64,000 bases of DNA. It comes from Escherichia coli (GTDB taxonomy: Bacteria > Pseudomonadota > Gammaproteobacteria > Enterobacterales > Enterobacteriaceae). Both the position numbers and the translations under genes were made by a program. The stretch's first letter is position 1; each line of letters opens with the position of its first letter. The stretch lies in the NCBI RefSeq assembly GCF_046105845.1, contig NZ_CP151004.1. One strand, 5' to 3'. Below are positions 3,968-6,486 of the stretch, one piece after another. The notes below the pieces were generated by a model that saw nothing but the letters and a program-made list of their open reading frames with translations, was not told where the DNA came from and did not search any database.

Positions 3968-4858
3968 ATGATCAAGAAGACAACGGAAATTGATGCCATC
4001 TTGTTAAATCTCAATAAGGCTATCGATGCCCACTACCAGTGGCTGGTAAGTATGTTTCACAGCGTAGTCGCGAGAGATGCCAGTAAGCCAGAAATAACGG
4101 ATAACCATTCTTATGGACTGTGCCAGTTTGGTCGGTGGATTGATCATCTGGGGCCACTCGATAACGATGAATTACCTTACGTTCGGCTAATGGATTCTGC
4201 CCATCAACATATGCATAACTGTGGTCGGGAATTAATGCTGGCTATTGTTGAAAATCACTGGCAGGACGCGCATTTCGACGCCTTTCAGGAAGGGTTGCTT
4301 TCTTTTACTGCGGCATTAACCGATTACAAAATTTATTTGCTGACGATCCGTAGCAATATGGATGTTTTGACGGGATTGCCGGGTCGTCGGGTTCTTGATG
4401 AATCCTTTGATCATCAGTTACGCAACGCTGAGCCTCTGAATCTTTATTTAATGTTGTTGGATATTGACCGATTTAAATTGGTTAATGATACCTACGGGCA
4501 TTTAATCGGCGATGTAGTACTACGCACCCTGGCAACTTACTTAGCCAGTTGGACGCGTGATTACGAAACGGTTTATCGCTACGGGGGGGAAGAATTTATC
4601 ATTATTGTTAAAGCGGCTAATGATGAAGAAGCATGTCGTGCAGGTATCAGAATTTGCCAGTTAGTCGATAACCATGCCATCACACATTCTGAAGGGCATA
4701 TCAACATTACCGTGACTGCAGGTGTGAGTCGCGCATTTCCTGAAGAGCCTCTGGATGTGGTCATTGGAAGAGCGGACCGGGCAATGTATGAGGGTAAGCA
4801 AACCGGAAGAAATCGCTGTATGTTTATTGACGAACAAAATGTGATTAACCGAGTTTAA
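3968..4858 (+). CDS. dgcZ: Zinc-sensing diguanylate cyclase (CZB domain + GGDEF)
   Basis: ORF 3962..4858; conserved start MIKKTTEIDAILLNL at 3968; active-site motif RYGGEEF present; matches DgcZ/YdeH (296 aa). Confidence 0.93.
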   Translation: MIKKTTEIDAILLNLNKAIDAHYQWLVSMFHSVVARDASKPEITDNHSYGLCQFGRWIDHLGPLDNDELPYVRLMDSAHQHMHNCGRELMLAIVENHWQDAHFDAFQEGLLSFTAALTDYKIYLLTIRSNMDVLTGLPGRRVLDESFDHQLRNAEPLNLYLMLLDIDRFKLVNDTYGHLIGDVVLRTLATYLASWTRDYETVYRYGGEEFIIIVKAANDEEACRAGIRICQLVDNHAITHSEGHINITVTAGVSRAFPEEPLDVVIGRADRAMYEGKQTGRNRCMFIDEQNVINRV

Positions 4859-4862
4859 GCTC

Positions 4863-4879
4863 CGTTTAACATTCATTGA
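4863..4879 (+). promoter_or_regulatory. Candidate PhoP box (cGTTTA-N5-cATTGA) at the -35 position of the mgrR promoter
   Basis: Direct-repeat-like hexamers read from sequence, second half degenerate; mgrR is a known PhoPQ-activated sRNA. Coordinates approximate. Confidence 0.3.
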
Positions 4880-4904
4880 GAAAACTGATGCTACTGTGTC
4901 AACG

Positions 4905-5002
4905 ATCCGTTATCAGTGCAGGAAAATGCCTGTTAGCGTAAAAGCAAAACACAAATCTATCCATGCAAGCATTCACCGCCGGTTTACTGGCGGTTTTTTT
5001 TC
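4905..5002 (+). ncRNA. mgrR: MgrR small RNA (PhoP-regulated, Hfq-dependent), ending at an intrinsic terminator
   Basis: Position between dgcZ and mgtS as in K-12. 3' end set by the hairpin plus T8 run at about 4976-5001; 5' end is inferred from the expected ~98 nt length and was not read from a clear -10 element. Confidence 0.4.
4976..5001 (+). terminator. Rho-independent terminator (ccgcc...ggcgg stem followed by TTTTTTTT)
   Basis: GC stem followed by a run of 8 T read directly from sequence. Confidence 0.7.
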
Positions 5003-5009
5003 GCCGTCA

Positions 5010-5049
5010 TAAAAATCAGGCCCCTTGTACACAACTGTAACAAGGGGCC
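5010..5049 (-). terminator. Rho-independent terminator for mgtS (10-bp perfect stem ggccccttgt / acaaggggcc, U-rich tail on the minus strand)
   Basis: Perfect inverted repeat; minus-strand RNA continues UGAUUUUUAUG. Lies 28 nt downstream of the mgtS stop. Confidence 0.65.
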
Positions 5050-5076
5050 GGTTAGGTGAGGGATTATCTCCGTTCA

Positions 5077-5172
5077 TTAGTCATCCCATTTGTGGCTGAA
5101 ATACGCGGCCAGAAAACCAGAAAATAAAATTATTCCCAGTACGGCCATAAAAACATTCATATTACCCAGCAT
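5077..5172 (-). CDS. mgtS: Small membrane protein MgtS (31 aa), PhoP-regulated regulator of MgtA stability
   Basis: Minus-strand translation is MLGNMNVFMAVLGIILFSGFLAAYFSHKWDD*, matching MgtS/YneM as I recall it; GGAGG Shine-Dalgarno 8 nt upstream. Not in the ORF track because it is under 60 aa. Confidence 0.85.
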   Translation of the reverse strand: MLGNMNVFMAVLGIILFSGFLAAYFSHKWDD

Positions 5173-5298
5173 TATTTGCCTCCGTTTATGGTGTGGTGTG
5201 TTTCCTCGCTTACCTTAATTTTCATCTCAATGAGAAAGATATTAGCAGAGGTAACCTAAACGAAGGCTGAATTAAATCTTTATTGTGTTCGACTTAAA

Positions 5299-6486
5299 TC
5301 AACAAAGCGCGGGCTGCCCCCACGGTCTTGCACGAATTCCTTTTAACATCAGCACCCACGCAGCAATAATCACCAACGCTAAGATGATAAACAGCGAGGA
5401 AGGCGGCAGGTTGGTTAGCACTACGCCACTCACTAATGGGTTAATCGCGGCACCAAGCCAGCCTAAAGACTGGGCGGAAAAATAGCTGGCTTTCATTCCT
5501 GGCGGCGCAATATGGTCAATCAACATATACTCGCCCGGCGCATAAATGATTTCACCGACAGTAAATACCGCAGCTGACATACCCCACAATAGCAGGCTGT
5601 TGCCGGAAAAAATAAAACCGACCAGACCGATGACGAAACAGAGGGTGCCTGCTGTCATCAGCGTGCGGATGTTAGCCGGGTTAAGTCGCCGGCCCACGGA
5701 ATATTGCAACGTAACTACCATGGCAGCATTCACTGGAAGAACAACCGCGACCACCTTTTCGGCAAAATCCCCATCAGCAATCACCATCACATATTGTGAA
5801 ATGCATGAAGCAAATGCGCCGCTAACAAAAGAAGCCAGAAAGCCAGAGCAGGTAAACCACAACAGTGCTTTATCTTGTAATAAAACTTTCGGCGACCAGG
5901 CACTGGCTGTTTCCGTGGCGATGATTTTCTCGCTGCGCTTTACCCAAATTTGAATGAAAAGCATGGGAAACGCGGAACAGATAGCTGCCAGCCAAAAGGG
6001 CAGATTGATGCTCTGCATCACCAACAGCGTGCCGAGCGGCGGACCGATGGTCCAGCCAATGTTGAGCATGGTGTAGTTGATTGAGAAGATTTTCGTTTTG
6101 CTGGTGGACGAAAGATTGTCGGCAAACCAGGCTTTCAACACAGTAGCAAAAACGGAATAGGCGCAGTTAATGAGGGCAAAAAAGAGCACCACCAGCGTCA
6201 CGTTATTCACTAAAGGAATGGCAATAAAACCGCAGGCGAAGGCGGTAATTGCCAGTAACATATAGCGTTTCTTGTCGAACTTATCCGCCAGGATACCAAA
6301 ACCGAGGCTAAAAACGACGCCAATAGTGAGCGCAATTGTCATCGCATAACCGATTAGATCGACACTCAGGCTGTACTGGCGACTCAAGTAAATGGTCATA
6401 AACGGCAGCGTAGCGCCGCGTCCGATGGTTAATAACAACGACGAGGCAAGAAGGGCGCTGGTAGAGCGTCGTAGGGATAAGTTCAT
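5299..6486 (-). CDS. ydeE: MFS transporter (dipeptide/arabinose exporter family)
   Basis: 395-aa ORF, multi-TM MFS-like sequence from MNLSLRRSTSALLASSLLLTIG; matches YdeE. Confidence 0.92.
   Translation of the reverse strand: MNLSLRRSTSALLASSLLLTIGRGATLPFMTIYLSRQYSLSVDLIGYAMTIALTIGVVFSLGFGILADKFDKKRYMLLAITAFACGFIAIPLVNNVTLVVLFFALINCAYSVFATVLKAWFADNLSSTSKTKIFSINYTMLNIGWTIGPPLGTLLVMQSINLPFWLAAICSAFPMLFIQIWVKRSEKIIATETASAWSPKVLLQDKALLWFTCSGFLASFVSGAFASCISQYVMVIADGDFAEKVVAVVLPVNAAMVVTLQYSVGRRLNPANIRTLMTAGTLCFVIGLVGFIFSGNSLLLWGMSAAVFTVGEIIYAPGEYMLIDHIAPPGMKASYFSAQSLGWLGAAINPLVSGVVLTNLPPSSLFIILALVIIAAWVLMLKGIRARPWGQPALC

Follow-up and report, generated by a model that had tools for sequence, protein, structure and literature searches.

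The gap between dgcZ and ydeE of Escherichia coli raises the question of which transcripts converge within it, and whether they end at one shared structure or at separate terminators of their own. We addressed this question in a 64,000-nt stretch of E. coli DNA, hereafter the window, in which the gap occupies positions 4859-5298. It is bounded by a plus-strand diguanylate cyclase ORF that ends at 4858 (dgcZ, 3968-4858, 99.0% to K-12) and by a minus-strand MFS-transporter ORF that ends at 5299 (ydeE, 5299-6486, 98.0% to K-12). An initial annotation, made from the letters alone, had placed in this gap a PhoP-controlled sRNA, MgrR, and the 31-residue protein MgtS, encoded on opposite strands and converging on back-to-back terminators.

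Comparison of the 440-nt gap with K-12 MG1655 revealed a single base change, a C at 4907 where K-12 has T; throughout, the K-12 coordinate is 1627818 minus the window coordinate. A 751-nt query around the region found the locus in 5416 of 5426 complete E. coli genomes, and RefSeq annotation beneath this query comprises dgcZ, mgtT, mgtS and ydeE. Gene order in K-12 MG1655 is the same as in the window, with an ncRNA, mgrR (b4698, 98 nt), annotated in addition. We consider it virtually certain that the gap holds the mgrR / mgtS-mgtT locus known from E. coli to be under PhoQ/PhoP control, in essentially K-12-like form, and nothing contradicts this identification. The genes, their control by PhoQ/PhoP, the mgtT and CDS58 ORFs and the 3' ends of the transcripts have all been published for K-12, and the expression data used below, which concern PhoP dependence, 3' ends, translation of MgtT and CDS58 and the function of MgtS, all come from that strain.

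On the plus strand, mgrR occupies 4904-5001. Alignment to K-12 and a covariance-model search, both proposed in the initial annotation as checks on the sRNA, bore out its identity: 98 of 98 nt aligned to b4698 with one mismatch, and Rfam family RF01407 (MgrR/STnc560, STnc560 being the Salmonella name of MgrR) gave a full-length match at 4870-5083 (+) of 281.9 bits (E = 1.8e-64) against a gathering score of 55, the sole Rfam match across the 64-kb window. The mismatched base, 4907, is nucleotide 4 of MgrR and by alignment and folding lies within its unpaired 5' end; most of the other species compared also carry C at this position. MgrR folds in agreement with the literature, with a stem-loop at its 5' end, a middle part that is A-rich and single-stranded, and the terminator hairpin followed by U8, at -25.9 kcal/mol (z = -2.89). 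K-12 and the window agree exactly in the pairing region and in the A-rich motif, and we predict that the RNA of the window binds Hfq and represses eptB, ygdQ and pitA. In K-12, MgrR belongs to the class II sRNAs, depends on Hfq and pairs with targets such as eptB and ygdQ (PMC6239178).

The borders of the Rfam match were considered as transcript ends and rejected. The model takes in 34 nt of promoter and 82 nt past the terminator, and because it contains promoter upstream of +1, the edges of a match to it are not transcript borders. A permissive Rfam scan of 4700-5450 yielded no other credible match, Hrs13 reaching 16.2 bits against a threshold of 52. The same scan returned, at 16.8 bits, a minus-strand self-match of the second hairpin of the gap, described below as hairpin 2.

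On the minus strand, an ORF of 31 codons at 5077-5172 translates to MLGNMNVFMAVLGIILFSGFLAAYFSHKWDD. The initial annotation had called it MgtS, and both its DNA and its protein proved to be the same as K-12 b4599 (100%). The peptide scored 80.6 bits against the NCBIfam equivalog NF033842 (cut-off 35), over residues 1-31 of 31, and 88.2 bits against Pfam PF22865 (cut-off 27). The accompanying description of the ORF as unannotated was right in that its reader had seen no annotation, but RefSeq annotates mgtS in essentially all E. coli genomes. MgtS is a 31-residue inner-membrane protein that shields the MgtA Mg2+ importer from degradation by FtsH (Wang et al. 2017, Yin et al. 2019, summarised in PMC12648545), and the same summary has MgtS and MgrR act together on PitA, a phosphate symporter, so that intracellular Mg2+ rises. 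For the window, these functions of MgrR and MgtS are predicted only from near-identity to the K-12 sequence.

Orthologous loci were fetched with a 20-nt MgrR core pattern, which returned 20 loci. These came from Escherichia albertii, E. whittamii, a second 'E. coli' species representative, Salmonella enterica subsp. arizonae, many Citrobacter and a Raoultella-labelled MAG; a Caldithrix MAG contig among the 20 was left out as probable E. coli contamination. Downstream mgtS was present in 17 of the 18 orthologous mgrR loci with enough sequence to judge, and over those 17 loci the gene was almost invariant.

Both genes are preceded by promoters of one layout, in which a PhoP-like box is followed after 9 nt by TG-c and a -10 hexamer. 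Upstream of mgrR, a PhoP-box-like direct repeat, CGTTTA-ACATT-CATTGA, can be read from the sequence at 4863-4879 (+), and an extended -10 element, TG-c-TACTGT, follows at 4889-4897, 6 nt before +1 at 4904. The initial annotation had set this half-site pair upstream of the dgcZ stop codon; it in fact starts 5 nt downstream of it (TAA, 4856-4858). The mgtS promoter, at 5239-5273 (-), consists of AATTCA-GCCTT-CGTTTA (5273->5257) and TG-c-TAATAT (5247->5239), and from the -10 hexamer the transcript would be expected to start at about 5232.

Neither box is a close match to the PhoP consensus, (T/G)GTTTA-N5-(T/G)GTTTA (quoted in PMC7667037), from which each departs at 4 of 12 positions. The window contains 1251 sites with four or fewer mismatches where simulated sequence gives about 1073, and the composite of box and extended -10 occurred seven times versus a mean of 4.3 by chance, a difference within chance. 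The half-site pair had been rightly seen, but taken alone it does not rise above chance, and we therefore did not use sequence statistics as evidence of PhoP control. Support for the boxes came instead from conservation, shared geometry and published K-12 genetics. In 20 sequences from four genera, the elements GTTTA, ATTG and TGnTAnnnT upstream of mgrR were invariant while the flanking bases drifted, and upstream of mgtS the elements TTCA, GTTTA and TGCTAnTAT were conserved across genera. In K-12, promoter fusions of mgrR and yneM (mgtS) act as direct PhoP targets (PMC3536696, PMC6239178, PMC11429745), and mgtS reporter activity is PhoQ-dependent (PMC11429745); across these studies, reporters and RNA-seq show that mgrR, mgtS and mgtT depend on PhoQ/PhoP.

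The two transcription units run towards each other into a pair of hairpins. The intrinsic terminator of MgrR, at 4975-5001 (+), is composed of an 8-bp hairpin (4975-4994, six G-C pairs) and a run of eight T at 4994-5001, and is the hairpin plus T8 that had been noticed about 100 nt past the box and judged consistent with MgrR. In the 20 sequences, 100% of cells in this hairpin were paired, with G-U/G-C/A-U variation at one pair. The intrinsic terminator of mgtS, at 5009-5049 (-), is formed by hairpin 2, a 13-bp hairpin running 5049->5019, and by the tract UGAUUUUUAU that follows it (5018->5009). A simple terminator scan found the MgrR terminator and missed hairpin 2, which was recovered by folding and by a repeat search that picked out perfect 10-nt arms at 5019-5028 and 5040-5049. 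The scan missed it because the 11-nt distance between these arms exceeds the tool's loop limit of 8 nt, and the miss is not counter-evidence. Folded as the minus strand, the full 13-bp stem reached -22.6 kcal/mol (z = -4.65 versus shuffles).

In the plus-strand reading, what comes after hairpin 2 is GGUUAGGUGAGGG (GGTTAGGTGAGGG), without a U-tract. Since the U-tract is found on the minus strand only, hairpin 2 is, as judged by sequence, a one-directional intrinsic terminator for the mgtS strand. Its outer arms showed 96% column identity, and its inner stem carried the compensatory double changes U-A/C-G and G-C/A-U. A minus-strand run of 4-8 T directly follows the hairpin in 18 of 18 sequences compared, interrupted in Salmonella (TTTTGT). 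Both hairpins and the minus-strand T-run are kept across Escherichia, Salmonella and Citrobacter.

In the window, 24 nt separate the stems of the two hairpins, which have no bases in common. The spacer between them is 24 nt in Escherichia and reaches about 65 nt in Citrobacter, the Citrobacter freundii group carrying 40-50 nt extra. Strand-specific terminators that are each conserved but lie at a varying distance are to be expected if the two are separate and adjacent, and argue against a shared bidirectional structure. K-12 Term-seq data point the same way. Supplementary file 1 of Adams et al. 2021 (PMC7815308) lists for MgrR a very strong 3' end at 1622824(-). This corresponds to window position 4994, at the base of the hairpin, and the annotated end (5001) lies 7 nt beyond it. 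On the mgtS strand it lists a 3' end at 1622804(+), corresponding to 5014, the second U of the tract. With 3' ends at the first hairpin on the plus strand and at 5014 on the minus strand, the main transcripts in these data stop 12-19 nt short of each other. These entries of the file settle the two-terminator question for the sequence that the window shares with K-12, and the claim that the hairpins are distinct neighbours stands, on the evidence of distinct stems, strand-specific U-tracts, a variable spacer and the mapped ends.

A different account of hairpin 2 would make it a second terminator, either a backup or a bidirectional one, that stops transcripts reading through the MgrR hairpin, the real plus-strand RNA then being an STnc560 species of about 214 nt. 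In favor of this, hairpin 2 is among the helices of the Rfam model, whose match extends over 4870-5083, and on the plus strand the stem can be extended by flanking AUCA/GGUU pairs to -25.4 kcal/mol. However, the model's inclusion of promoter before +1 already sets its borders apart from those of any transcript, the plus strand after hairpin 2 reads GGTTAGGTGAGGG and lacks a U-tract, and the conserved A-run stands 5' of the hairpin. Annotation and biochemistry in K-12 likewise give an MgrR of 98 nt. The overwhelmingly dominant plus-strand 3' end is at the first hairpin, where the Term-seq score is 2,434,090 (the minus-strand end at hairpin 2 scores 2,596), and among the Term-seq entries consulted for mgrR none places a plus-strand end at hairpin 2. 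We therefore regard this account as very improbable, and take hairpin 2 to be the terminator of the mgtS strand.

Two further small ORFs, both outside the picture drawn by the initial annotation, flank mgtS on the same strand. Downstream lies the annotated mgtT (4973-5077, -; 100% to K-12 b4775), of 34 codons, whose ATG overlaps the TAA stop of mgtS in the arrangement TAATG (5079-5075). Upstream lies CDS58, a 17-residue ORF (MKIKVSEETHHTINGGK) at 5172-5225 (-) that is the same as CDS58 of PIRT-Seq; it runs 5225->5172, and its TAA stop and the ATG of mgtS again form an overlapping TAATG. CDS58 gave a weak western signal in the PIRT-Seq study (PMC12350097), and among the orthologous loci compared we found no conservation of it outside Escherichia.

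From its start at the end of mgtS, mgtT crosses hairpin 2, the U-tract and the spacer, and then the last 29 nt of the oppositely oriented mgrR, so that its stop codon (4975-4973) abuts the stem of the MgrR terminator. Because mgtT extends past the mgtS terminator into that of MgrR, some mgtS transcripts must read through and be antisense to MgrR. The 3' end listed at 5014 falls within codon 22 of mgtT, and full-length MgtT would accordingly be expected only from such read-through transcripts.

That mgtT is a genuine functional protein gene, with hairpin 2 acting as an intra-operon attenuator that sets the ratio of MgtS to MgtT, is a reading with evidence of expression behind it. MgtT has been detected by ribosome profiling with stalled initiation complexes (Ribo-Ret) and confirmed by epitope tagging, at levels below those of MgtS (bioRxiv 10.1101/511675), and was detected again by PIRT-Seq (PMC12350097). 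It is part of an mgtS-mgtT operon, and its induction by low Mg2+ depends on PhoQ (PMC11429745). The protein has a Pfam family of its own, PF23498, against which that of the window scored 96.3 bits (cut-off 27), and it is annotated both in K-12 and in RefSeq. Its start coincides with the mgtS stop in 17 of the 17 loci that have mgtS, and within E. coli the mgtT stretch is at least 99% identical in 5076 of 5416 records, versus 3936 of 5416 for mgtS.

The comparative data weigh against this reading. In 9 of the 17 loci the mgtT ORF ends after 9-14 codons, and elsewhere it has 30-66 codons with unrelated C-termini; since the ORF is not kept across genera, the PF23498 'family' is in effect Escherichia-specific. 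Substitutions in mgtT fall mostly at codon positions 1 and 2, giving pN/pS of 1.5-2.2 versus 0.25 for mgtS, values that come from three Escherichia genomes with only 6-14 substitutions per comparison. Conservation within MgtT falls on the residues that the hairpin arms encode (NRPL..., KGP). The 25 nt from the junction to the hairpin, which hold the first mgtT codons, showed no unusual conservation, their column identity of 0.86 equalling that of mgtS third codon positions. The low variability of mgtT within E. coli is explained equally well by constraint at the RNA level, because little of the ORF lies outside the two terminators and the 3' end of MgrR. Experiments in K-12 add that neither deletion nor overexpression of mgtT gave a phenotype and that MgtT is not membrane-localised (PMC11429745), and the dominant mgtS-strand 3' end in the Term-seq file lies inside the ORF. 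These results suggest that mgtT is without protein-level constraint outside Escherichia. The missing evolutionary signature of coding weakens the claim of a functional protein, but not the identity of the ORF with K-12 mgtT. On balance we consider it unlikely that mgtT is a functional protein gene served by an attenuator, and favor the reading of hairpin 2 as the principal end of the mgtS transcript, with mgtT translated from the remainder.

Taken with the K-12 literature, these observations fit a scheme in which low Mg2+ would activate PhoQ/PhoP, and phosphorylated PhoP would in turn activate two convergent promoters of the same design. From the plus-strand promoter would come the 98-nt, Hfq-dependent MgrR (4904-5001), ended by its own hairpin and U8, and from the minus-strand promoter an mRNA encoding MgtS, preceded by the tiny ORF CDS58. 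Most mgtS mRNA would end at its separate intrinsic terminator (the hairpin at 5049->5019 and its U-tract, with a 3' end near 5014). A minority of mgtS transcripts would read through, and only those would carry the whole of mgtT and be antisense to at least the last 29 nt of MgrR.

Read-through of this kind is consistent with an RNase III-dependent site mapped in K-12 at 1622816 (PMC5371410), which corresponds to window position 5002, at the 3' end of MgrR. Cleavage at this site was not reproduced on a single in vitro transcript, and the authors attribute it to pairing of sense and antisense RNAs (PMC5371410). We infer that the site reflects pairing between mgtS-mgtT RNA and MgrR, as would fit an antisense read-through transcript.

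The conserved ATG at the mgtS stop might also be explained in another way: rather than serving any protein, it may direct ribosomes that re-initiate there into the 5' arm of the terminator hairpin. In every species compared the mgtT ORF reaches into that arm of hairpin 2, even where it has only 9-14 codons. If this idea were true, translation would tune termination and antisense transcription into mgrR, and would couple translation of MgtS to RNase III-dependent turnover of MgrR. We think it quite improbable and continue to favor the scheme of partial read-through set out above.

The value of this locus as a discovery is small, since within the gap the window differs from K-12 by one base. The use of the present check is as a calibration, a 31-residue peptide and an sRNA having been rightly recognised in raw sequence. 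A modest interest remains in mgtT as an expressed ORF that extends past an efficient terminator into a convergent sRNA gene.

Set beside its K-12 counterparts, each element of the locus is the same or nearly so. MgrR matches b4698 at 97 of 98 nt, the sole change being the C/T difference at nt 4. The two RNAs have in common their neighbours (dgcZ upstream and mgtS convergent), the terminator hairpin with U8, the promoter elements, the A-rich (ARN)-type central region and the target-pairing region. MgtS (YneM) shares with b4599 all 31 residues and 96 nt, together with the Shine-Dalgarno sequence, promoter and terminator, and we detected no difference between them. MgtT likewise has the same 34 residues and the same TAATG overlap as b4775, and CDS58 has the same 17-residue ORF and DNA as in BW25113, both without any difference.

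The convergent arrangement of mgrR and mgtS varied among the orthologous loci retrieved with a 20-nt MgrR core pattern. At a Citrobacter amalonaticus locus (L020), mgrR is recognizable at 552-791 of that locus with both its promoter and its terminator present, and within the ~700 nt downstream of it we found neither the mgtS ORF nor the mgtS terminator stem (hairpin 2). Pairing of mgrR with a convergent mgtS is therefore not universal. In the Citrobacter freundii group, an insertion of 40-50 nt lies between the mgtS and MgrR terminators (loci L004, L005, L007-L009, L012, L013, L015, L017, L018 and L022). The insertion contains its own short inverted repeat, ACCTG...CAGGT, and is absent from Escherichia. 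The MgrR core was also present on a contig binned to a Caldithrix metagenome-assembled genome (L006, SMXE01000224.1, 'MAG: Caldithrix sp.'), where the first ~420 nt encode MgtS, MgtT and CDS58 peptides identical to those of E. coli. This contig very probably entered the Caldithrix bin as E. coli contamination.

Matches to the 751-nt dgcZ-mgrR-mgtS-ydeE region included five on plasmids. In E. coli WCHEC040047 (NZ_CP043295.1), an IS1A element lies inside the region, so that the match falls into two pieces. In the window, a terminator-like hairpin, CGTGGGGGCAGCCCGCG, followed by a T-rich tail (5308-5324, minus strand), is situated inside the last ydeE codons and extends into the stop codon, with the mgtS promoter directly downstream.

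The MgrR 3' end reported from Term-seq in PMC7815308, at K-12 position 1622824, corresponds to window position 4994 (plus strand), the first U past the hairpin, and is 7 nt shorter than the annotated end at 5001. Trimming of the U-tail in vivo could account for this gap, as could a technical effect caused by the homopolymer.

Within the mgtS 5' leader, a block of sequence, TTAAGGTAAG(A/C)GAGGAAAC (~5194-5214, minus strand), is kept in Escherichia and Citrobacter, yet the ORF overlapping the same stretch is not conserved in the Citrobacter and Salmonella loci compared. The block could serve either as a regulatory element in the RNA or as an element that binds an sRNA. The overlapping ORF, MKIKVSEETHHTINGGK (17 aa, 5172-5225, minus strand), is identical to CDS58, a PIRT-Seq candidate small protein whose western signal is described as weak where PMC12350097 reports it. 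If mgtS transcription starts near 5232, the CDS58 ATG would be almost leaderless. The CDS58 TAA stop overlaps the mgtS ATG as TAATG, the type of junction also present at mgtS/mgtT.
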